Assembly (NCBI GenBank): GCA_030668825.1
Contig: DAOVET010000017.1
Location: 1 to 40,632, forward strand
Length of the DNA stretch: 40,632 bases
From: Candidatus Heimdallarchaeota archaeon
Lineage (GTDB): Archaea > Asgardarchaeota > Heimdallarchaeia > Heimdallarchaeales > Heimdallarchaeaceae
Reading direction: 5' to 3'
Below, in pieces: positions 8,135 to 40,396 of this stretch. Positions within the stretch are counted from its first letter, which is position 1. The number at the start of each line of letters is the position of its first letter. A program made the translations under genes and the position numbers. The notes beneath the pieces were generated by a model. It was not told the origin of the DNA. It saw only the letters and a list, made by a program, of their open reading frames with translations, and did not search any database.

Positions 8135-8662
8135 TTATTTTCTCTTGTAATAGCGTTTTGTAGGACTACCACAATCAGGACAACCATCCACTTTATGCTT
8201 AAATTTACTTCCGCAAACAGTACATTTCCAGAAGTATTCACGTTGATGTTTTATCTTGAATTGAAAAGATTGAAATTTCACATTCAGCTTATTACAAACA
8301 TTTTGAACAGCATTATCATCGCTAAGAACTACACTATTGGGGTAGTCTTGTGATAAAGCAATTACATTTAAATCAGTTTTTGATAATGAAGAATAATCAC
8401 CAGATTCCTTAGCAGAATTAGTTACCAAAGAAACAGCGGATTCTGTTGGAGTAGCAAAAACAATTTGTCTTTCTTCTTTCAACAAAGCTAAATTTGATTT
8501 AGCTTGAAAAGATACAATTTCTTCTTTGAGCGTCTCAGGAATTATCAAAACCTCATTATCATCAATTTTTCTTTCAAAAATAAAATGATGAATAATAGCA
8601 GTTGAATCAACTATGAAATATTGGGGGTGGGGTTCCTGTCTATGCCCATTCATCTGAATCAT
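8135..8662 (-). CDS. nob1: Nob1-type PIN endonuclease with Zn ribbon (16S rRNA maturation)
   Basis: IVDSTAII, SGDYSSLSKTD, VLSDDNAVQNV and C-terminal CTVC..CPDCG. Confidence 0.9.
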   Translation of the reverse strand: MIQMNGHRQEPHPQYFIVDSTAIIHHFIFERKIDDNEVLIIPETLKEEIVSFQAKSNLALLKEERQIVFATPTESAVSLVTNSAKESGDYSSLSKTDLNVIALSQDYPNSVVLSDDNAVQNVCNKLNVKFQSFQFKIKHQREYFWKCTVCGSKFKHKVDGCPDCGSPTKRYYKRK

Positions 8663-9501
8663 CAGAGGTTAAATCTTAGTAGTTTTTCTCTCACACGAGG
8701 AACATAATTATCAGCAAATCTTATGAAACTTATTCTTTCAGAAGACTTCTTTATCTCTATTGATTCCTTATATCCTAAACTGAAGTAGGTCTTTCCATCA
8801 ATCACGACACTGCCAGACCTGTATTCACTTAGATTTGTTACTTTGATTGTAGATTCCAGAGAAAATACCATAGGTACAATGCTTCTTGAAATCGGACAAA
8901 TTGGTACTAAAGTAATAGCTTCTATTGAAGGAACAATCAGAGAACCACCAGCAGATAAAGCATAGGCGCTAGAACCTGTACTAGTAGCAATTATAAGCCC
9001 ATCACTATTCAAGGTGTAAAGGAATTGATCATCTACATGTACCCCCAATGTGATAACATGTCCTATTTTGTTAGAGGTAACAATAGTATCATTTGCTGCG
9101 GGAACAGTTGGAGAATTTTCTGAAGAAACATCTATGGTATAATAATCTTCAATGAAATATTCTATATTTTCAAGCTTCACTAAAGCTTCATCTACTTCTT
9201 CTGGCTGTATTTCGGTAAGAAAGCCTACTTTTCCACAGTTTACTCCAAAGATTGGACTATTTTTCCAAGTTGCAAATGTTTTTAGAATTGTTCCATCACC
9301 ACCAAAAACAAAAATCATGTCTACTTTTGTTTTAGGGCACGAATGTTCGGGAGAACCTTCCTTCTTAGCGAGAAATGTATCTAGATACACAGTATAACCT
9401 TGATTCTTCAGCTTCTCAAATAACTTAAGTGCTGATTTTTGGGCATGATCATGACTTGAACTTGTTATTAGTAGGCATGAATCTTTGGAAAATAAACTCA
9501 T
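8662..9501 (-). CDS. nadK: NAD(+) kinase
   Basis: FGGDGTIL, GVNCGKVGFL, AAND and DGLIIATSTGSSAYALSAGG motifs. Confidence 0.95.
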   Translation of the reverse strand: MSLFSKDSCLLITSSSHDHAQKSALKLFEKLKNQGYTVYLDTFLAKKEGSPEHSCPKTKVDMIFVFGGDGTILKTFATWKNSPIFGVNCGKVGFLTEIQPEEVDEALVKLENIEYFIEDYYTIDVSSENSPTVPAANDTIVTSNKIGHVITLGVHVDDQFLYTLNSDGLIIATSTGSSAYALSAGGSLIVPSIEAITLVPICPISRSIVPMVFSLESTIKVTNLSEYRSGSVVIDGKTYFSLGYKESIEIKKSSERISFIRFADNYVPRVREKLLRFNL

Positions 9502-9542
9502 CTTATGGTTAAAATTGAATAGAAATTAAAAAAGGTTCGGTA

Positions 9543-10730
9543 TTACCTTTTTGGTTTATTAGCCTTAGCAATAAAATATCCCAATGTAGGTTGTTCTCCC
9601 GGAATAAACCTTTGAACAGGATATGTTCTATTTTCAACTATTGAACCCGAGTTGTGTAAAGTATACCGTTGCTCTACAATCTTCAATCTTAATTTCTCAC
9701 TAGCATAATCAATAACTTCTTCATTTTCTTCTTTTGTGATAGTACAAGTTGAATAAACCAACGCGCCACCTGGTTTTAATAAATTATTGCAGGAATGCAG
9801 AATTGCTTTCTGGTACATTGCTGTTGCTTTGATAGTTTTTCTGTCTGTTTCTAGTAGCAATCTAGGTCTTAATCCTAAGGAGGTACAGGGTGGATCAACT
9901 AAGACTTTATCAAATTTCATAGACCAACTTCTACTGAAACTAATTATGTCTCCTACTTTTGTTTGAATGTTTTTTAGTTTATATTTCTCTATTTTCTTGT
10001 TTAGTTTCTGTATTCTGTTCTTTGATCTATCAATTGCAACAATCACTGCTTCACTTTTTGAAAGTTCATTAAGATGAATTGTTTTGTTACCAGGTGCTGC
10101 ACAACAATCAAGAATCTTTTCATTTGCTTTTGGTTCCAGATTCATACTGGTTAAATAAGCAGGTAAACTTTGAAAGTATGCAGGAAAACCATCTAAACCT
10201 ACTTGTTGAAGGTTTGGAACCTTGAACGGAGAAACCAGATTCCTTGCTGCAACTCCTTTCCTTTTAACCAGTATATCATGATGATTTAGTAAAGCCTTAG
10301 CTTTTGCTACAGGAATTTTTACTTGGTTCAGTACCTTAACTATATCATTCATCCTTACTTTATTCGCTCTTTTAACTCCTGGGATAAAAATATCTGATCC
10401 TTGATAGATCATCTCTGCTGCACGATTATCAACAACCATCTCTTTCGTATTTTCTTCAAATTCTAAAGGAAATGGTCCTTTTGGTTTCGTTACTATTACA
10501 TTGGGGAACTTGCTATGTACTTTGGTTTCATATCCAATCCGTTCAAAACTGTCTACTATTCTCTCCATCATATCATGCTTCTGAAAAACATGAAGTGTGT
10601 ATTCTTCCATGGGTGTAGATATTTTTTCAAAATATTTCTTAGCTAAAATACCACCAAAGAGTTCTTCAACATATTCTCTAAACTCTTTCCCGATGACCCT
10701 TCCATTGGAATGTAAATGAGAATATGTCAA
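9543..10730 (-). CDS. RsmB/NOP2/NSUN-family RNA m5C methyltransferase with PUA domain (NSUN6-like)
   Basis: PUA-like AAEMIYQGSDIFIPGV; LDCCAAPGNKT, VLVDPPCTSLGLRP and LVYSTCT (both catalytic Cys); TTG start after GGGGA. Confidence 0.9.
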   Translation of the reverse strand: MTYSHLHSNGRVIGKEFREYVEELFGGILAKKYFEKISTPMEEYTLHVFQKHDMMERIVDSFERIGYETKVHSKFPNVIVTKPKGPFPLEFEENTKEMVVDNRAAEMIYQGSDIFIPGVKRANKVRMNDIVKVLNQVKIPVAKAKALLNHHDILVKRKGVAARNLVSPFKVPNLQQVGLDGFPAYFQSLPAYLTSMNLEPKANEKILDCCAAPGNKTIHLNELSKSEAVIVAIDRSKNRIQKLNKKIEKYKLKNIQTKVGDIISFSRSWSMKFDKVLVDPPCTSLGLRPRLLLETDRKTIKATAMYQKAILHSCNNLLKPGGALVYSTCTITKEENEEVIDYASEKLRLKIVEQRYTLHNSGSIVENRTYPVQRFIPGEQPTLGYFIAKANKPKR

Positions 10731-10739
10731 TTCTTTCCC

Positions 10740-11234
10740 CTAATCTAGTGAATGAAACTCTACTTTACGTGTTGTTGTATCAAGAATTGCCACCGTCGGA
10801 TGATCATATAAATCAAAAGTTTCCCCAGGATTTATTATGATAGTTTTTCCAACTTTCTTCAGAAGTTTCTTATGGGTATGTCCCGTTATAATATAATCAT
10901 AAGGGTCTTTCGAATAAATCAGTGAATTAAGTACAAGCTCTTCTGTACCATGATAGAGAGCAAACTTCTGTCCATCTAAACTGATTTCACCTATTTCTGG
11001 ATAAAAGAATCCAACTTCTTTCATCATTTCTGATATGACCGCCGTATCACCTTTATTGTTCCCTGAACAAAGATAAAATTTACCTTTGTATTCTTCAAAC
11101 ATTTTTACACAAAATGGGGAAACTAAATCTCCAGCATGGATTATTGTTTCTATTTCTTTCTCTGTAAAAAGTTCCAAAGCTTTTCTTATATTTGATCGGT
11201 GATCATGACTATCACTCATGATTCCTATTTTCAT
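10740..11234 (-). CDS. YfcE/MJ0936-family metallophosphoesterase (Vps29-like fold)
   Basis: MSDSHD, HAGD, GNN, YHG, GHTH and NPG motifs. Confidence 0.92.
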   Translation of the reverse strand: MKIGIMSDSHDHRSNIRKALELFTEKEIETIIHAGDLVSPFCVKMFEEYKGKFYLCSGNNKGDTAVISEMMKEVGFFYPEIGEISLDGQKFALYHGTEELVLNSLIYSKDPYDYIITGHTHKKLLKKVGKTIIINPGETFDLYDHPTVAILDTTTRKVEFHSLD

Positions 11235-11273
11235 AATTTACACCTATGTTTTTGATAAAACTGATTATCACTT

Positions 11274-12772: not shown

Positions 12773-12808
12773 ATCTTACCACGTAAATTATTTATTGTGT
12801 GGTAAGAT
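12773..12808. repeat. Conserved palindromic element, copy 1 (ATCTTACCAC-N16-GTGGTAAGAT)
   Basis: Perfect 10 bp inverted arms with a 16 nt AT-rich spacer; identical arms at 36277-36312 and 38389-38424. Confidence 0.93.
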
Positions 12809-12892: not shown

Positions 12893-14221
12893 ATGAATTT
12901 AATGAATAACTTAGCTAATTCCGATCCAGAAGTTGCTGATATGCTTCTAAGAGAATTAAAGCGACAGGAAGAAGGCATAGAGCTTATTCCTTCTGAAAAT
13001 TACACTTATCGATCTGTTCTTCAGGCTATGGGGAGTGTTTTCACCAACAAATACTCCGAAGGTTACCCTAAGAAAAGGTACTATGGTGGAAATGAAATTG
13101 TAGATGAAGTTGAAATTCTAGCTATAGAACGCGCCATGGAGCTCTTTGGATGCGAACATGTTAATGTTCAACCGTATTCTGGCTCTCCAGCTAATCAAGC
13201 TGTTTTCTTTGCTTTACTAAATCTAAAAGATAAATTCCTAGGTTTCAGTCTTACATCAGGGGGTCATCTTACTCATGGAAGTCATGTAAACTTCTCTGGT
13301 AAGAATTATGCTTGTGTTAGCTATGATGTTGATAAAGAGACAGAAGTGCTAGATATGGCAGTTATCCATGAACTAGCTAGAAAAGAAAAACCCAAAATGA
13401 TTATATCTGGTTTAACCGCATATCCTAGAAAAATAGACTTTAAGGCTTTCCAAGAAATCGCAGAAGAAGTTGACGCATACCAACTTGCAGATATTTCTCA
13501 TATTGCAGGTTTAGTTGTAGGTGGAGTACATGAAAGCCCTGTTCCTTATGCTGATGTTGTAACAACTACAACTCACAAAAGTCTTAGAGGACCACGTGGT
13601 GCAATTATAATGTGTAAAACTGAAGATAGATTACATGATATTCACCACCCAAATAAAAAAACAAAAGCAGGAGAACCATTTAGTTTGGCTCGATTAATAG
13701 ACTCTGCAGTATTTCCTGGATTACAGGGGGGGCCCCATGATCATTCTACCGCAGCAAGAGCTGTTGCATTTGCTGAGGCTCTTAAACCTGAGTTTAAAGA
13801 TTATGCAAAGCAAATTGTCAATAATGCCAAAACATTGGCTGATGAATTAATGTCCCTTGGCATAAAACTTGTTACAAATGGAACCGACAATCATCTGATT
13901 CTCATTGATTTGCGACCTGAAGATTTAACCGGAAAAGGTGGTCCTATTCAAAATGCTCTGGATGAAGCAGGCATAACAGTGAATAAGAATACAGTTCCAT
14001 ATGAACCTTCAAGTCCCTTTCATCCTTCTGGACTTAGATTAGGTACACCAGCTATAGCTTCTAGAGGAATGAAAGAACCCGAAATGAAAGTAATTGCAGA
14101 AGGCATTGCTAAAGTTATAAAAGCCAAGGGTGATGCAGAAGTAAGTAAGCAAGTTCGAAAAGATATTCTCGAACTTACAAAGCAATTCCCACTATATCCT
14201 GGTATGTCGATATTGAAGTAA
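12893..14221 (+). CDS. glyA: Serine hydroxymethyltransferase (THF-type)
   Basis: LIPSENY, NKYSEGYPKKRYYGG, NVQPYSGSPAN, GGHLTHG, TTTTHKSLRGPRG and FPGLQGGP. ATG 12893 follows AGAGGA. Confidence 0.98.
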   Translation: MNLMNNLANSDPEVADMLLRELKRQEEGIELIPSENYTYRSVLQAMGSVFTNKYSEGYPKKRYYGGNEIVDEVEILAIERAMELFGCEHVNVQPYSGSPANQAVFFALLNLKDKFLGFSLTSGGHLTHGSHVNFSGKNYACVSYDVDKETEVLDMAVIHELARKEKPKMIISGLTAYPRKIDFKAFQEIAEEVDAYQLADISHIAGLVVGGVHESPVPYADVVTTTTHKSLRGPRGAIIMCKTEDRLHDIHHPNKKTKAGEPFSLARLIDSAVFPGLQGGPHDHSTAARAVAFAEALKPEFKDYAKQIVNNAKTLADELMSLGIKLVTNGTDNHLILIDLRPEDLTGKGGPIQNALDEAGITVNKNTVPYEPSSPFHPSGLRLGTPAIASRGMKEPEMKVIAEGIAKVIKAKGDAEVSKQVRKDILELTKQFPLYPGMSILK

Positions 14222-35725: not shown

Positions 35726-35895
35726 AGACGCACCCGGCAAAGGATTCTATATCCGACCCAATGATGATACTAAAAAAGGTTTTCCATCTTCAAGTTATTT
35801 AAACATCAACCAAAAGCATGTGAAAAAGTACTCAAGATGTTTAAAATCAGTTTTGTGGAGTTTAAATATTGTCCTTTATACAAATAATGAGAATT

Positions 35896-36072
35896 ATGTT
35901 AATGCTATTACAAGGGATAAAAGGTCTGATTTTCAAGAAGAAAAGAGGATCGCCTATATTAGAAGAAATTCTTTTGATAGGTGTCGCCATATTGATTTTT
36001 GCCATAATCTTTGGAATCATTTTCAGCTTGATTGACTGGTCAACAACCTCTTTTGATGATCTGTTTGGTTAA
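35896..36072 (+). CDS. Short type IV pilin-like protein (class III signal peptide)
   Basis: KKKRG/SPILEEILLIGVAILIFAIIFGII: basic residues, Gly at -1, Glu at +5, then a hydrophobic helix. TTTAAATA box at 35861-35868. Confidence 0.75.
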   Translation: MLMLLQGIKGLIFKKKRGSPILEEILLIGVAILIFAIIFGIIFSLIDWSTTSFDDLFG

Positions 36073-36081
36073 AATAGAAGC

Positions 36082-36166
36082 TGGTGCGGAGAGGGAGATT
36101 CGAACTCCCGGACCACTAAGGACTAGATCCTCATTCTAGCGCCTTTGACCACTCGGCAATCTCCGC
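36082..36166 (-). tRNA. tRNA-Leu(GAG)
   Basis: Minus strand reads GCGGAGA...CTAGA-ATGAGGA-TCTAG, long variable arm, T arm, TCTCCGC-A-CCA; 85 nt. Confidence 0.96.
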
Positions 36167-36276
36167 AAAGGTATGTATTAGACCGAGCCTACTGATTTTT
36201 AACTTTATCGGCATATGATTTTTAGTGTCCCAATCCCTCTTTGAAACAAAACTACAAGCAAAACTACGCTGGGAAA

Positions 36277-36312
36277 ATCTTACCACGTAAAATTAAATTT
36301 CTGTGGTAAGAT
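36277..36312. repeat. Conserved palindromic element, copy 2
   Basis: ATCTTACCAC-GTAAAATTAAATTTCT-GTGGTAAGAT. Confidence 0.93.
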
Positions 36313-36374
36313 AAATTGCGCTTACTGGGAGCACCTGAAAAAAACTCTGAAAGAGATAGGGGTAATTTGATGAT

Positions 36375-37949
36375 TTACAGCATCTTTCTAATTGTATCGT
36401 TTCCTTGCATTGTTAGATAATCTGACAATTTATACTCCAGTCTACTAAATCCATACTGTCTGCATTTCTTTATAGCCATGTATTGTAGAGCTGGTCCCAA
36501 TGAATCTCCATTCTTGTAGGCCCCTACTTGGATGAAAGCTTCCATGAAAACGCGCATTTCAAGCACTTCTATCTTATGAAGTTGATTTTCATACTTTCTT
36601 AGTAGTGGGGAGATTTCTGCAAACCGGTTGATTTTATAATATTCTTGAGCCGCAAGTAAGTCAGCAAAAGCTTTCTCGGTAAATGTCATTCTGTCTTCTA
36701 CAGGTCTTCTTTTTAGTTTAGAAGTATAATGCATAACTTCATTTTCATCAATAGTTGTTGTTTTTTCGATAAGGAAATTTATGATGTGTTCTACTCTTTT
36801 TGTGCTCGGATTATTTAAGTTTCTTATTTCAATCAGCTGCTCTTTGGTAAGGTTAGCATTCAAAAGAAATTCACAAAAGATTATTGCATTACTTTGAAAT
36901 CTTCTAACATTATCAAATATAGTTTGTACCAACACTTGAAAATCTTCGATTCGAAAGTTTTGTATTCTTGAAAAAATATAGAATTTTGTTAGATTAAAAA
37001 TGTGTTTCATTTGTTCTTTACTGAAAGAATCTAGATTTCTTGTAGCAATTCCTTCTTCAATTAATTCATCTACTTCTTTCATTTGTTTGTGAGCAGATTC
37101 AAGTTCTCCTTGAAGTGCATAAGTTGAAGCTAAGTAAGAGAGGGCTGTTATGTAGTAACCTGAGTAAATACTCTTATTGTATATGGGTCTCAAAATAGCT
37201 TGAGACTCTAGTAAATGCTTTTTTGCTTCATCGAGGTTTAAATTAAGCTCGTGGCCAATACCTATGAAGTAATGAATCATTGACTGGATTTCTTTAGGCG
37301 CTTTAAGCAAAAGTTCTCTTCCACTGAGAATTTTTCGAATTAATTTCATCATTCTTTCTTTATTTTGTGTTTGCATATAAATTATGATTAAAATACCTAA
37401 AGCCATTGCAAAACCGTGATAATAATAATTCAAATGGAAATATTCAGCAGAATTTTCCAAAATACTCACAACACTAAAATCTCTACAGGATAACCACTTA
37501 CTTACAGCATAGGAGTAATTACACATGTTGTAAGCATATGAATCTGCTTGTATTGAATTTCTAAGAAGTTCTACAGCTTGGCTAAACTCATAGTTGCTTC
37601 TTTCTCTATTTCCTTTCAGCAATTCAATGTATCCTTTGATTTGAAAAGACAGTGCTAAACCTTCGATGTAGTTAATTTTTGTTGCAATTTGACTCATTTC
37701 TTCTAAAAGCTCTTCTACTAATGGTAAATTTTCTTTAAAATGGTACAGTTGTTTGATTTTGAGTTCATATAGATCCACTACGAGTTTTAAGTCAGATGAA
37801 GATTTACTATACTCTAAAACACCATCTACAAGTTCTAGAACATCTTTTGATTTTTCATTAGCACATAGAATGCGTAATTCATTGATTATTAAGGGTAAAT
37901 TAGTTTCTTTCAGTTTTTCTCCAAACAATTTTCTTAATTCTTCTTTCAA
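36375..37949 (-). CDS. All-helical TPR-like (alpha-solenoid) protein of unknown function
   Basis: TPR-like helix pairs, e.g. GLALSFQIKGYIELLKGNRERSNYEFSQAVEL, IHYFIGIGHELNLNLDEAKKHLLESQAI and ALSYLASTYALQGELESAHKQMKEV. TTG start with GAGTGA SD and a TTTATAAA box upstream. Confidence 0.75.
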   Translation of the reverse strand: MKEELRKLFGEKLKETNLPLIINELRILCANEKSKDVLELVDGVLEYSKSSSDLKLVVDLYELKIKQLYHFKENLPLVEELLEEMSQIATKINYIEGLALSFQIKGYIELLKGNRERSNYEFSQAVELLRNSIQADSYAYNMCNYSYAVSKWLSCRDFSVVSILENSAEYFHLNYYYHGFAMALGILIIIYMQTQNKERMMKLIRKILSGRELLLKAPKEIQSMIHYFIGIGHELNLNLDEAKKHLLESQAILRPIYNKSIYSGYYITALSYLASTYALQGELESAHKQMKEVDELIEEGIATRNLDSFSKEQMKHIFNLTKFYIFSRIQNFRIEDFQVLVQTIFDNVRRFQSNAIIFCEFLLNANLTKEQLIEIRNLNNPSTKRVEHIINFLIEKTTTIDENEVMHYTSKLKRRPVEDRMTFTEKAFADLLAAQEYYKINRFAEISPLLRKYENQLHKIEVLEMRVFMEAFIQVGAYKNGDSLGPALQYMAIKKCRQYGFSRLEYKLSDYLTMQGNDTIRKML

Positions 37950-38049
37950 TATTACTCACTCGCACTCTAATCTTTAAATTCATTTATAAACCGTGATAAT
38001 ACTTAAAAGGAAAATCTAAGAAAAAAGAATAAGGAAAAAGGAGAGGATG

Positions 38050-38124
38050 TTAGTTTGGCATCCATGCAGGAGGTAGTATTGAATCATCTCCTTCGTCAGG
38101 GTCGTATTTTTGTTCGTACATCAT
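38050..38124 (-). CDS. Micro-peptide A, 24 aa: MMYEQKYDPDEGDDSILPPAWMPN
   Basis: ATG..TAA with SD-like GAGTTGA, a TTTTAATA box at 38167-38174 and a T-rich tract downstream. Paralog at 38518-38589 shows synonymous and conservative changes. Confidence 0.8.
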   Translation of the reverse strand: MMYEQKYDPDEGDDSILPPAWMPN

Positions 38125-38220
38125 GTTTCAACTCTTGGAAAGGTTACTCTAATAGTGGAATGAAACTATTAAAACACCCAAAAGAAAAATGTGACAATAA
38201 AAGAGAAAGAAAAAGGAAGT

Positions 38221-38292
38221 CTAACATCTAAAGCTATCAAGCAGATGGCAATATTCCATCGTCTCTTCAATAAAATCATATTGACTTTTCAT
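38221..38292 (-). pseudogene. Micro-peptide B: MKSQYDFIEETMEYCHLLDSFRC as read; apparently a 1-nt-deletion relative of A/C (shifted frame DDGILPSA*)
   Basis: Perfect SD AGGTGA 6 nt before the ATG. GAA G-A GAC GAT GGA ATA TTG CCA TCT GCT TGA aligns to A's GAA GGA GAT GAT TCA ATA CTA CCT CCT GCA TGG. Confidence 0.6.
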
Positions 38293-38388
38293 TGTTAATC
38301 ACCTAGAATTCTTGTTTAAGGATGACAAACAGGGGAATGAATTACATACTTTTCTAGATTTAAATCGCCAACGAAAATGAGCTGGAAA

Positions 38389-38424
38389 ATCTTACCACGT
38401 AAATTTAATTTTGTGTGGTAAGAT
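38389..38424. repeat. Conserved palindromic element, copy 3
   Basis: ATCTTACCAC-GTAAATTTAATTTTGT-GTGGTAAGAT, with outer arms AAAATGA (38374-38380) and TCATTTT (38433-38439). Confidence 0.93.
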
Positions 38425-38517
38425 AAACCTCGTCATTTTGCGAACTGGATAAATTTCCAAAAAAAGAATGGAACAATTAAATGAAATAAAAATAAAAAAT
38501 AAGTAGAAAATTCTACA

Positions 38518-38589
38518 TTAGGGGAGCCATAATGGGGGAGTTATGCTTTCATCTCCATCTTCTGGGTCGTATTTTTGTTCGTACATCAT
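38518..38589 (-). CDS. Micro-peptide C, 23 aa: MMYEQKYDPEDGDESITPPLWLP
   Basis: ATG..TAA with the same RBS as A, TTTATGTA at an equivalent distance (38634-38641) and a T-rich tract downstream. Confidence 0.8.
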   Translation of the reverse strand: MMYEQKYDPEDGDESITPPLWLP

Positions 38590-38862
38590 GTTTCAACTCT
38601 TTGGAAAGCACTATAATATTACAAGAAAGAACATACATAAACACAAGAAGAAAAGACTGACAGGTAAGAAACAGAAATAATTTACTTTTTTATATTCAAC
38701 ACTTACAGATATTTTTGATTTTAGCTTTGTTTCTAAAACTGTATTTTAAACCAAACAAAACCCCGTATAGGAAAAAGAACGTTTTTCAACAAAAGTTCAC
38801 TTTCAGAGATGTCTCTCTATTAAGTATAAATAGTAAATTCCCTTGACTATCTTAGAGACGAT

Positions 38863-40086
38863 ATGATGCACTCATCAGATGAAGAATATTTTAATTCGCT
38901 AATCAAAAAACCAACTGTATTCAAAAACATTGGTTGTTTGTCTGTTACATATACCCCTCCATATCTTCCACACAGGGAGGAAGAACTCAGGACTTTAGCT
39001 AAATACTTCAAAACAATTTTTGAAGAACAAGATGAACCATTGAGAAAAATTTGTATAACTGGACCAACAGGATCTGGAAAAACAACCCTCGCAAAACGGT
39101 TTGGTCAGCTTTTGGAAAATATAGACAAAAACAAGAATTTTTTGCTTGTCTACATTAATTGTAGAATTTACAAAAGTCCTTATCTCATTATTAGTACTCT
39201 TGCAAGGAAACTAAATAAGGCAATTCCTCCAAGAGGTTACTCCTTTGAAGAATTACAATCACTTCTCATTAGATTGCTTGATTTTTATTCTCCAAAGGTT
39301 CTGTTAGTTTTAGATGAGATCGATTATCTTATATCTAGAGTAGGCACAGATTTCCTTTACACTCTACTTAGAATTAGTGAAATGACAACTAAACAATGGA
39401 TTTCATATATTTTCATAGCAAGAAACCTGAATTTTATCCATCAACTAGATGCAAGTACTCAAAGCAGTTTTCAATCTAATCACATTTCCTTGGATCGATA
39501 CTCTGAAACTGATTTAAAAGACATTATTAAATCCCGATCAGAGCTAGCCTTTTATGATAGTACCATAACCGAAGACTCCGTTGAACTTATTGCGGATATA
39601 TCAAGTAAATCAGGAGATGCGAGATATGCAATAGAAATACTTTGGGGGGCAGGGCAATGCGCTGACGATGAGAGTTCTCCCATAGTTTATCCTGATCATG
39701 TAAGAAAAGCAAAAGCTTTGATTCACCCAGAAATAAGAAGAGAAGTAATTTTAACATTAACCTTGCATCAGAAATTGATACTGCTTGCGATTATAAGAAA
39801 ACTAAAACACACAAAAAACGCATATATCTCAACAAATGATGCAATTAGCTCTTATAGATTAGCTTGTGAGGAATATGAAGAGGAACCTAGACGGCATACT
39901 CAAATCTGGTCATATCTGAAAGAATTATCAAAACAAGATGTAATCAGTACAAAAATCTCAGGGGAAGGAATGCGTGGTAAAACTACACTAATCAGTATAC
40001 CAGACATATCAGTAGAAACTATAGAACTCTTTCTGATGAAGTCAATCGAAAATCAAAAGAAAACAGTAGAATATGCTGAAAAATAG
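38863..40086 (+). CDS. cdc6: Orc1/Cdc6 replication initiator
   Basis: YTPPYLPHREEE, Walker A GPTGSGKT, YINC, Walker B LDEID, sensor-2 GDARYAI and C-terminal WH with GMRGKTT. Confidence 0.97.
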   Translation: MMHSSDEEYFNSLIKKPTVFKNIGCLSVTYTPPYLPHREEELRTLAKYFKTIFEEQDEPLRKICITGPTGSGKTTLAKRFGQLLENIDKNKNFLLVYINCRIYKSPYLIISTLARKLNKAIPPRGYSFEELQSLLIRLLDFYSPKVLLVLDEIDYLISRVGTDFLYTLLRISEMTTKQWISYIFIARNLNFIHQLDASTQSSFQSNHISLDRYSETDLKDIIKSRSELAFYDSTITEDSVELIADISSKSGDARYAIEILWGAGQCADDESSPIVYPDHVRKAKALIHPEIRREVILTLTLHQKLILLAIIRKLKHTKNAYISTNDAISSYRLACEEYEEEPRRHTQIWSYLKELSKQDVISTKISGEGMRGKTTLISIPDISVETIELFLMKSIENQKKTVEYAEK

Positions 40087-40096
40087 GGGGAAAACA

Positions 40097-40396
40097 ATGA
40101 CAAAGGAAAGCGATAGAGAGATACAGCTTAAAATACCATTAGAAGATGTTTTCTCCTCAAGAGGAAGGGTAAGAATTCTAAAGTTATTAGCTGAATTAGG
40201 TGAATTAAACATTTCTGCGATATCACGAAGTATAAATCTCAATCATTCTGCAGTAAAAGGGCATTTAAAATATCTAACAGATGTAGGATTGATAAAGGAA
40301 AAGAGATTTGGTAGAATCTTAATATATCAATTCAAAGATAATAACATCTTGGCTCATTCTTTGAAACAATTATTCAAAATATGGGGAGAGAACTAA
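40097..40396 (+). CDS. ArsR-like winged-helix protein, co-oriented with cdc6
   Basis: FSSRGRVRILKLL..GELNISAI...LNHSAVKGHLKYL...GLI.EKRFGR; ATG 40097 follows GGGGG. Confidence 0.85.
   Translation: MTKESDREIQLKIPLEDVFSSRGRVRILKLLAELGELNISAISRSINLNHSAVKGHLKYLTDVGLIKEKRFGRILIYQFKDNNILAHSLKQLFKIWGEN

Follow-up and report, generated by a model that had tools for sequence, protein, structure and literature searches.

What are open reading frames (ORFs) of two dozen codons doing directly upstream of a gene for a large repeat protein, and do their products act on that protein? The question is raised by a 40,632-nt stretch of DNA (contig DAOVET010000017.1 of assembly GCA_030668825.1, hereafter the window) from a Candidatus Heimdallarchaeota archaeon of the Heimdallarchaeaceae, the archaeal family closest to the eukaryotic stem. 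Three such frames precede a gene for a 524-residue protein predicted to fold as a tetratricopeptide repeat (TPR) solenoid, and an original prediction, based on the window alone, proposed a peptide-receptor module. Using the source genome (138 contigs, 2.76 Mb, 33% G+C) together with related genomes, we found that the pairing of peptide and TPR genes is real, selected, near-obligate, and lineage specific. We consider it probable that the small products are acidic micro-proteins paired with TPR-solenoid receptors and bound in their grooves as cognate regulatory ligands. In what follows, labels of the type L001 denote the fetched loci of related genomes, G000 is the window's own genome, and C marks a contig.

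The micro-protein gene family

All three co-oriented micro-ORFs that had been proposed could be confirmed immediately before the TPR gene, on the same (minus) strand, and two of them are intact genes. The proximal one, pepA (positions 38050 to 38124), has 24 codons (MMYEQKYDPDEGDDSILPPAWMPN), and the distal one, pepC (38518 to 38589), has 23 (MMYEQKYDPEDGDESITPPLWLP). They are part of an 85-nt direct repeat (79% identity) that also takes in ca. 18 nt of 5' leader. The motif they had been said to share, the identity of their N-terminal codons (the first eight), and the synonymous or conservative changes further on (CCT/CCA, GAC GAA/GAA GAT, TCA/AGC, and CCT CCT/CCC CCA) are exactly as described. 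Each gene is preceded by GAGTTGAAAC (38125 to 38134 and 38590 to 38599), an imperfect Shine-Dalgarno (SD)-like sequence of the form GAG.TGA, and is followed by T-rich tracts on the same strand (38000 to 38049 right after the pepA stop, 38455 to 38517 past that of pepC), in agreement with the ribosome-binding site and T-rich tract claimed for them; the tracts after pepA are a likely archaeal terminator. The third frame, pepB (38221 to 38292, minus strand), is a pseudogene relic. Aligned at the DNA level with five intact copies, it has a 1-nt deletion in a Gly codon, a CCT-to-TTT change, a CCACCT-to-CCATCT change that breaks the PP pair, and a TGG-to-TGA change. As a conserved peptide in its own right it has no homologue, the best other tblastn hit (E value of 0.064) falling on a member of the family, and we rejected that interpretation in favor of a decayed third copy.

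The intact genes belong to a family of acidic micro-proteins, typically of 21 to 25 residues, with the consensus M..KYDP[DE][DE]GD..ILPP.W.P. A six-frame motif scan found nine copies in the window's genome: two in the window, six on contig C91, and one on C25. We gathered 53 distinct copies from 30 related loci and the genome's own contigs, and later 103 distinct peptides from 56 loci; these have 18 to 32 residues, and none has a hydrophobic segment. In the 53-copy alignment, the invariant D, P, G, P, P, and P columns each use two to four synonymous codons, and the stop is constant in position and varied in codon (TAA in 37 copies, TAG in 10, and TGA in 6). The pooled Nei-Gojobori ratio of nonsynonymous to synonymous substitution rates (dN/dS) over the core was 0.116 in frame versus 1.40 and 1.20 in the two shifted frames, and mean heterozygosity at codon positions 1, 2, and 3 was 0.178, 0.190, and 0.541. 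With frame and stop kept and a dN/dS of ca. 0.12, the peptide-level selection that had been expected for these frames is borne out. The micro-ORFs are real genes under coding-level selection, and selection of this kind suggests that they are translated. None of seven peptides tested was present in a collection of ca. 15 billion predicted proteins, from which we conclude that gene callers miss them.

Some subgroups depart from the common pattern. In one (e.g., L022:1017-1082 and L045:283-348) the acidic part reads DPDGDGDEDI, which would fit the DxDxDG pattern of calcium-binding loops, whereas the DPDEGD of the main group does not. In another (L031, L040, and L046) the SD-containing leader reads ATG AGT GAT GCA AAA in frame, giving an apparent N-terminal MSDAK that is probably leader and not protein. 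One public metagenome contig (run X16) joins position 38098 to 38564, skipping 465 nt, which would fuse pepA and pepC into a chimeric gene; the join may reflect either a genuine deletion variant or a collapse of the assembly over a 38-nt shared stretch.

Pairing with TPR genes and distribution

The TPR gene of the window (36375 to 37949, minus strand) begins with a TTG and is what we call a type-A paralogue. Among the fetched loci there were 61 distinct type-A ORFs of at least 450 amino acids, 59 of them with at least 250 nt of upstream DNA. In 58 of these 59, one to three co-oriented peptide genes lie within 700 nt upstream, and the sole exception is an outlier of 20.6% identity. The distance from the end of the proximal peptide gene to the TPR start is mostly 60 to 130 nt. 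Among the more distant type-B paralogues, six of seven have a peptide gene, in five cases convergent and 33 to 55 nt past the TPR stop and in two cases upstream. A second genus, found by running the peptide DNA pattern alone on the order and absent from the sampling by TPR protein, carried peptide genes adjoining TPR-A or TPR-B genes in four of four loci. This was a predictive test that could have failed, and it passed. The recurrence of micro-ORFs upstream of TPR homologues, which had been suggested as a check, thus extends beyond the genus of the window.

The distribution of the module is narrow. Of 400 genomes of the phylum, 24 had a match to a degenerate DNA pattern of the peptide core, every one of them in genus g1 or g10, and none matched the reversed control; the family is thus well beyond what chance would give. 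Within the same genus, 23 of 24 genomes encode the TPR protein, with as many as 12 matches in one genome; these often form tandem arrays, and some are broken by stops. In other genera of the order, one of 16 genomes gave a weak match (E value of 7.7e-6). A profile search of 1.84 billion cluster representatives returned 102 proteins at an E value of ≤0.001. Peptide and TPR genes are therefore confined to two genera of one family.

Within the window's own genome there are four TPR paralogues, with the nine peptide copies beside them. Besides the window copy, these are C91 13402-14988 (54% identical to it), C91 437-2004 on the minus strand (45% identical, split into two ORFs near position 1640), and a distant type-B gene at C25 9274-10950 (21% identical). 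The split paralogue keeps intact peptide genes, two upstream (2080-2154 and 2422-2499) and one downstream (177-254).

The TPR partner protein

The AlphaFold2 model of the 524-residue protein (predicted local distance difference test [pLDDT] of 89.5, predicted template modeling score of 0.87) is an uninterrupted all-helical hairpin solenoid. In it, residues ca. 20 to 430 are predicted to form the peptide-binding superhelix, and residues ca. 395 to 524 a nearly invariant C-terminal module of three helical hairpins. Pfam TPR families (TPR_10, TPR_12, TPR_2, and TPR_MalT) all scored below their gathering thresholds, the best with 17.9 bits (cut-off of 27.5), followed by 16.1 (30.1), 16.0 (27), and 14.5 (45). 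The description of the gene as TPR-like is therefore upheld by predicted fold only. Its 164 homologues are unnamed or called "hypothetical" or "TPR repeat protein," in records of Candidatus Heimdallarchaeaceae, Heimdallarchaeota, or the Asgard group.

Conservation is highest in the C-terminal 130 residues, where 26 columns are invariant in 51 sequences; these residues are predicted to fold as six helices forming three TPR-like hairpins (pLDDT of 85). Their best fold matches are the C-terminal repeats of Rgg2, PlcR, and LGN (Z of ca. 11, at best 11.3), in a range that is common for helical repeats. No helix-turn-helix (HTH) or enzyme domain was found in the TPR protein by Pfam or by the fold search with its C-terminal part, as the original prediction had anticipated in stating that this would not be a standard RRNPP receptor. 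VIA-wide fold matches of the full protein were topped by APC5 (Z of 19.1, 471 residues aligned) and included the phi105 Rap protein (17.8), NprR-NprX (17.2), LGN (17.0), MalT (16.6), APC6-CDC26 (3hym, 16.0), PlcR-PapR (15.0), and AimR (14.8). Foldseek against the PDB returned generic TPR proteins with TM scores of 0.16 to 0.54 and no RRNPP entry among the matches listed.

Promoter-like elements

Read along the minus strand, the locus runs from pepC through its T-rich tracts, a palindromic hairpin, pepB, pepA, and a second set of T-rich tracts to a TTTATAAAT box and the 524-codon frame. The pepA promoter and leader (38125 to 38196) hold, besides the SD-like sequence, a TATA-like TTTTAATAG (38166 to 38174) and a TGTCAC box (38191 to 38196), and those of pepC (38590 to 38662) a TATA-like TTTATGTATG (38632 to 38641) and a TGTCAG box (38657 to 38662). 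The TPR gene has a promoter-like region of its own (37955 to 37990, minus strand) with the TATA-like TTTATAAAT (37982 to 37990) and an SD-like GAGTGAG (37955 to 37961). The same plan recurs across the family. Most of the 53 peptide upstream regions have a TGTCA box, a T-rich stretch, a TATA-like TTTTAATAG some 50 nt from the ATG, and, as SD-like sequence, GAGTGAT or GAGTTGA. In most spacers (52 TPR genes) the peptide stop gives way to T-runs and then to a separate box of the TTTATAAAT type, 30 to 45 nt ahead of the TPR start. The pepC-type variant promoter is also found before the distal peptide genes of L003, L009, and L016. At the sequence level, a promoter-like box for each peptide gene and another for the TPR gene argues for separate, trans-acting products.

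The TGTCA box lies ca. 17 to 20 nt upstream of the TATA-like box in nearly all peptide genes, too far upstream for a B recognition element, and is a candidate operator common to the whole peptide family. A subgroup of TPR genes (L029 ca. 1350-1430, equivalent to G000 C91 ca. 13305-13400, and several other loci) has, in place of the usual TTTATAAAT promoter context, a TTTAAATA box with the direct repeat ACTGCAAT..ACTGCAAT immediately ahead of it; the repeat is a possible binding site for a regulator.

Predicted complex and proposed specificity code

The complex that we modeled joins the TPR protein of L046 (P0102, 528 amino acids, 70-row alignment) to its proximal peptide (103-row alignment). 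It scored 0.79 (0.81, 0.79, and 0.62 in the individual runs), while the best of three controls scored 0.01; the runs agreed in at least 39% of contacts, with a partner pLDDT of at least 48. On calibration, 58 of 80 solved complexes reach this mark, against 2 of 110 mismatched pairs, figures that are only a rough guide here as our own alignments were supplied. For this one pair, then, the complex prediction with controls that had been proposed as a check favors binding. Peptide residues 12 to 31 (20 of 31, exactly the conserved core) are predicted to touch TPR residues 27 to 425, and the most confident contacts join the W-x-P end to TPR residues 104 to 184, including the family-invariant Tyr146. 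Conservation is higher at the interface columns than elsewhere in residues 20 to 430 (entropy of 1.55 versus 1.97 bits, Mann-Whitney p of 7e-4). They include conserved basic columns (27, 111, 157, 179, and 425), which would suit an acidic ligand, and aromatic ones (146, which is invariant, 172, 228, 229, and 263).

Do the two partners change together? For 58 pairs of a type-A TPR protein and its proximal peptide, we computed a bias-corrected mutual information and ranked, for each variable peptide position, 415 variable TPR columns; all ranked columns share one tree, so this ranking controls for relatedness. For the peptide residue after W, the four variable columns among its predicted contacts, 67, 104, 108, and 143, come out at ranks 1, 2, 6, and 9 of 415, and for the x of PPxW, column 183 comes first. 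Over nine variable peptide columns, the top-10 lists hold 30 interface columns out of 90 entries where 8.7 would be expected, and for their union the figure is 21 of 69 (hypergeometric p of 2.9e-8). C-terminal peptide positions track TPR columns 58 to 184 and N-terminal ones columns 232 to 426, which is the antiparallel register of the model. The covariation is independent of the complex prediction because the predictor's two alignments (70 and 103 rows) were unpaired. In co-switch tests on FastTree trees built without the tested columns, a Pro-Asn (PN) tail and Lys67 switched together in six to seven of eight independent pairs and in the opposite sense in none (p of ca. 0.03).

A putative code emerges from these pairs, with Lys at column 67 going with a C-terminal PN tail, and Met or Gln at 183 with Ala or Leu in PPxW. 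Proximal peptides fit it in 46 of 58 and 53 of 58 cases, which is partly circular, the code having been derived from the proximal set. The window's TPR protein has Lys at column 67 and Met at 183, whose partners in the family are the PN tail (15 of 16) and Ala in PPxW (10 of 11). The proximal pepA (PPAW..PN) matches this code and the distal pepC (PPLW..P) does not, so of the tandem peptides proposed as partners of this protein, the first fits the code and the second falls outside it. pepC may belong to another receptor as its ligand, serve in cross-talk or as an antagonist, or simply be an orphan. Taken together, structure prediction and covariation support the binding, its register, and the positions that set specificity.

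Proposed mechanism

The scheme that we favor treats each peptide gene as its own small transcription unit, built of the TGTCA box, the TATA-like box, an SD-like leader, the ORF, and a T-tract. The peptide would thread the TPR superhelix in extended, antiparallel form, with its invariant PP.W.P end packing on invariant or aromatic groove residues of repeats 2 to 5 (e.g., the Tyr of column 146) and its acidic YDP[DE][DE]GD half running along conserved basic residues of the later repeats. Three positions (the x of PPxW, the residue after W, and the C-terminal tail) would set the choice among paralogues and thereby define cognate pairs, that of the window being pepA and the 524-residue protein. 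The nearly invariant C-terminal module, common to all paralogues, might then relay occupancy to one common partner. The bound peptide would then be a regulatory ligand, in line with the "signalling or regulation" of the original prediction.

A number of results weigh against this scheme. The case for binding draws on model confidence for a single pair, which is not the pepA-TPR pair of the window; the peptide chain folded was a 31-residue reading from an upstream in-frame ATG whose first eight residues are probably 5' leader, and one of the three runs gave 0.62 with a partner pLDDT of 48. A cruder covariation test, by mean normalised mutual information per column, did not separate interface columns (0.293) from the others (0.291, p of 0.41), and several predicted contacts do not covary, namely columns 150 (rank 319 of 415), 177 (257), 184 (278), and 111 (340). 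Of the nine co-switch tests, that of the PN tail with Lys67 reached p < 0.05; six further ones among those listed were underpowered (p of 0.125 to 0.5), none of them in the opposite direction. The pairs are drawn from related genomes and tandem paralogues and hence are not independent; shared recombination tracts could also add to the covariation of N-terminal columns, the peptide gene adjoining the 5' end of the TPR gene, but they would not explain why the N-terminal half of the peptide tracks the far end of the TPR protein. Distal peptides fit the code of the neighboring receptor in only 11 of 26 and 10 of 26 cases, and the orphan peptide genes of L051, L052, and L053 are intact with no neighboring TPR gene. 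We could tie no effector or DNA-binding domain to the module, nor any exporter, protease, or importer. Finally, among public sequencing runs no RNA run covers the module stretch; one run marked "RNA?" (X20) is probably DNA and covers parts of the TPR gene only.

As for the orphans, the position in the window's genome that is orthologous to L053 holds a TPR gene, which suggests that at L053 the receptor was lost or moved and the peptides stayed.

A bolder version is that these are the first archaeal peptide-based cell-to-cell ("pherotype") systems, in which cells would release acidic micro-proteins that have no leader and detect them with matching TPR receptors in the cytoplasm; a genome could have as many as a dozen such private channels, all converging on one common cellular decision through the invariant C-terminal module. 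We regard this extension as doubtful. A stand-alone peptide gene (L057, G000 C91 11536-11610) lies 260 nt downstream of a gene pair for an ABC ATPase and an FtsX-type permease (8615-11273), with the same synteny in L053. The adjacency could be a coincidence or a hint of an export route, the latter if the pherotype version is true.

Should the pairs bind as predicted, two Heimdallarchaeaceae genera would run a private, rapidly diversifying peptide-recognition network, and the family would offer a clean natural example of a readable specificity code. It would also give an experimental handle on Asgard signaling or self-recognition, with peptides of 23 residues that can be synthesized and a soluble receptor. 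More widely, a "hypothetical" repeat protein can have its missing partner encoded in a micro-ORF that falls below the cut-offs of gene callers.

Alternative explanations

The strongest competitor keeps the peptide in the groove and changes its role. It would be a constitutive structural subunit, or a chaperoned client, that stabilizes the solenoid or is stabilized by it and regulates nothing, comparable to the small subunits of the anaphase-promoting complex/cyclosome (APC/C). The model lends it some weight, as it buries ca. 20 of 23 residues over the full length of the superhelix, a larger contact than signal peptides typically make. So do the fold searches, in which APC5 ranks first and APC6-CDC26 scores well, with Cut9-Hcn1 (2xpi) in the Foldseek list, and so does the lack of a hydrophobic export segment. 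We nevertheless think it unlikely. Separate promoters and a distinct conserved upstream box suggest independent control; a TPR gene has one to three peptide genes, the distal ones being non-cognate, and orphan peptide genes stay intact away from any TPR gene. Moreover, repeated specificity switches typify diversifying recognition pairs, whereas structural filler needs none.

Small, multi-copy, tandem, and unannotated genes with a variable N terminus and a conserved core would also suit precursors of ribosomally synthesized and posttranslationally modified peptides (RiPPs), with the TPR protein acting in recognition or as a scaffold for a modifying enzyme whose gene lies elsewhere. This had been named as the alternative to a receptor module, and it is very improbable. 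The array neighbors (pyrophosphatase, phosphoenolpyruvate carboxykinase, molybdopterin oxidoreductase, S-Me-THD-like, Cdc6, amidohydrolase, and M42 peptidase genes) are housekeeping genes, which weakens both this explanation and that of a mobile element: beside the peptide/TPR arrays there is no recurrent modifying enzyme or transposase, nor a recurring protease or dedicated exporter. The peptides themselves lack a leader/core split, their variable N-terminal part having only three to six residues, and Cys, Ser, and Thr are not conserved.

The position of the peptide genes, co-oriented and 60 to 130 nt upstream of the TPR gene, with 21 to 25 codons and a conserved PP.W.P just before the stop, recalls cis-acting leader or arrest peptides (TnaC-like, with a Pro-stop end) that would control the downstream gene, and arrest peptides often end in such a Pro-rich motif before the stop. 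A role in cis is nonetheless hard to maintain, and we give it even less credence than the RiPP explanation. Most loci appear to have a T-tract and a separate TATA-like TTTATAAAT between peptide and TPR start, the type-B peptide gene is convergent and past the TPR stop in five of seven cases, orphan and distal copies exist, and covariation with predicted groove residues is left unexplained by cis action.

Least of all can the copies be non-coding DNA elements, such as origin-recognition boxes, or a small RNA with incidental frames: the window copies are intergenic and next to Cdc6/Orc1, and the 85-nt repeat reaches into the leader, but codon-level selection (third-position variation three times that of positions 1 and 2, a low dN/dS only in this frame, synonymous codon use, and a stop position kept with all three stop codons) rules out a non-coding repeat as far as sequences can tell, most copies are away from any Cdc6 gene, and Rfam sees only tRNAs in the window. 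Origin-of-replication repeats had been considered first owing to the adjacent Cdc6/Orc1 gene and were dropped after the codon analysis.

Other features of the window

On one flank, the module adjoins a Cdc6/Orc1 gene (38863 to 40086, plus strand), followed by a gene for a small winged-helix protein with an ArsR-type HTH, the two together spanning 38863 to 40396. A Cdc6 paralogue is also close to the module in two other genomes (L033 and L036), and the module may be next to a replication origin. Past the other end of the module are a tRNA-Leu(GAG) gene (36082 to 36166) and a 67-codon ORF (35869 to 36072, plus strand) with a weak, sub-threshold match to the N terminus of archaeal type IV pilins (19.4 bits against a cut-off of 25.2). 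Only tRNAs were found in the Rfam scan.

The hairpin between pepC and pepB (38384 to 38427) is a 44-nt palindrome, ATCTTACCAC-N16-GTGGTAAGAT, 96 nt downstream of the pepC stop, and a second copy (36272 to 36315) lies 60 nt downstream of the TPR stop. There are at least nine copies in the genome, mostly 45 to 100 nt past the stop codons of unrelated genes (window 12775-12806, 36272-36315, and 38384-38427; C72 566, 1391, 4625, and ca. 8739; C91 12813, 12882, and 15088). Copies downstream of unrelated genes on C72, C78, and C91 mark it as a generic 3'-end element with no special tie to the module. Possible roles are those of a terminator or processing hairpin, a repetitive extragenic palindrome-like element, or a site for a dimeric factor. 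The idea that the 44-nt copies are direct repeats flanking an element inserted at the tRNA-Leu gene was dropped, the hairpin being generic and downstream of unrelated genes.

Comparison with known systems

In the literature passages searched we found no archaeal RRNPP-type system and no matched peptide/TPR system. In the parts of PMC12700828 that we saw, "archaea" was matched in the reference list only, and in those of bioRxiv 10.64898/2026.10.28.762692 "peptide" occurs zero times. If they bind as predicted, the pairs described here would be the first matched peptide/TPR-receptor system in Archaea, none having been found in print.

The likeness to LGN/Pins TPR proteins concerns geometry. Those proteins take up an extended peptide of ca. 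20 to 40 residues from Inscuteable, Frmpd4, or NuMA, antiparallel inside the superhelix, and match the fold of our protein well (4wng, Z of 17.0; 4a1s, 15.8). Unlike the system described here, LGN is a eukaryotic polarity scaffold, its ligands are segments of large proteins, and neither gene pairing nor paralogue diversification is involved. The likeness to kinesin light-chain TPRs is one of chemistry only. Going by PMC6214655 and PMC13078783, their groove takes short acidic peptides built around a Trp or Tyr; the peptide here joins a Y-D-P-acidic part and a P-P-x-W part. The kinesin motifs sit in large cargo adaptors and are not free-standing gene products, and the fold ranks low (5oj8, Z of 8.4 with the C-terminal part; the kinesin light chain-like 4y6w, 11.5).

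The groove-filling subunits of the APC/C (APC6-CDC26 and Cut9-Hcn1) are, by analogy, the closest counterpart of the constitutive-subunit explanation, with a long TPR superhelix whose inner groove holds an extended, very small partner. The small subunits of the APC/C are constitutive single copies in one conserved complex, whereas the TPR proteins here form up to 12 paralogues in one genome, switch specificity, and are restricted to two genera.

The RRNPP systems of Bacillota and phages (Rap-Phr, NprR-NprX, PlcR-PapR, PrgX, Rgg-SHP, and AimR-AimP) resemble the module in more respects. Both have a TPR-type receptor encoded beside the tiny gene for its own peptide, a peptide that here is predicted to lie extended in the TPR groove, and many diversified paralogous pairs per genome with matched specificity; RRNPP receptors are also among the best fold matches (Z of 14 to 18, and ca. 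11 for the C-terminal hairpins). The differences are as plain. The host here is archaeal. Sequence homology was not detected, Pfam seeing generic TPR only and the 102 profile hits being, by length and score in an unnamed library, almost all of the same family. The fold does not set RRNPP receptors above APC5 or LGN, so common descent is unsupported. RRNPP peptides start out as pro-peptides that have an export signal and are processed to a C-terminal tail of 5 to 10 residues; the peptide here is strongly acidic and has no signal or leader, and essentially the whole product of 21 to 25 residues is predicted to be bound. The RRNPP effector part is an N-terminal HTH or, in Rap, an N-terminal helical bundle acting on a partner protein. 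Pfam found no HTH in the receptor here, and its C-terminal 130 residues match TPR-like hairpins alone (best Z of 11.3), which leaves room for an N-terminal surface of the Rap kind. RRNPP peptides are secreted and taken up again, which yields cell-density signaling; a link to an Opp-type importer or to an exporter is a feature of RRNPP systems, and none is tied to the module here. The export signal is not an absolute criterion, as leaderless RRNPP-type peptides are reported from Firmicutes, to judge from the title of a reference in PMC12700828. On balance, of the systems compared, the module works most like an RRNPP system, yet it is not a member of that family.

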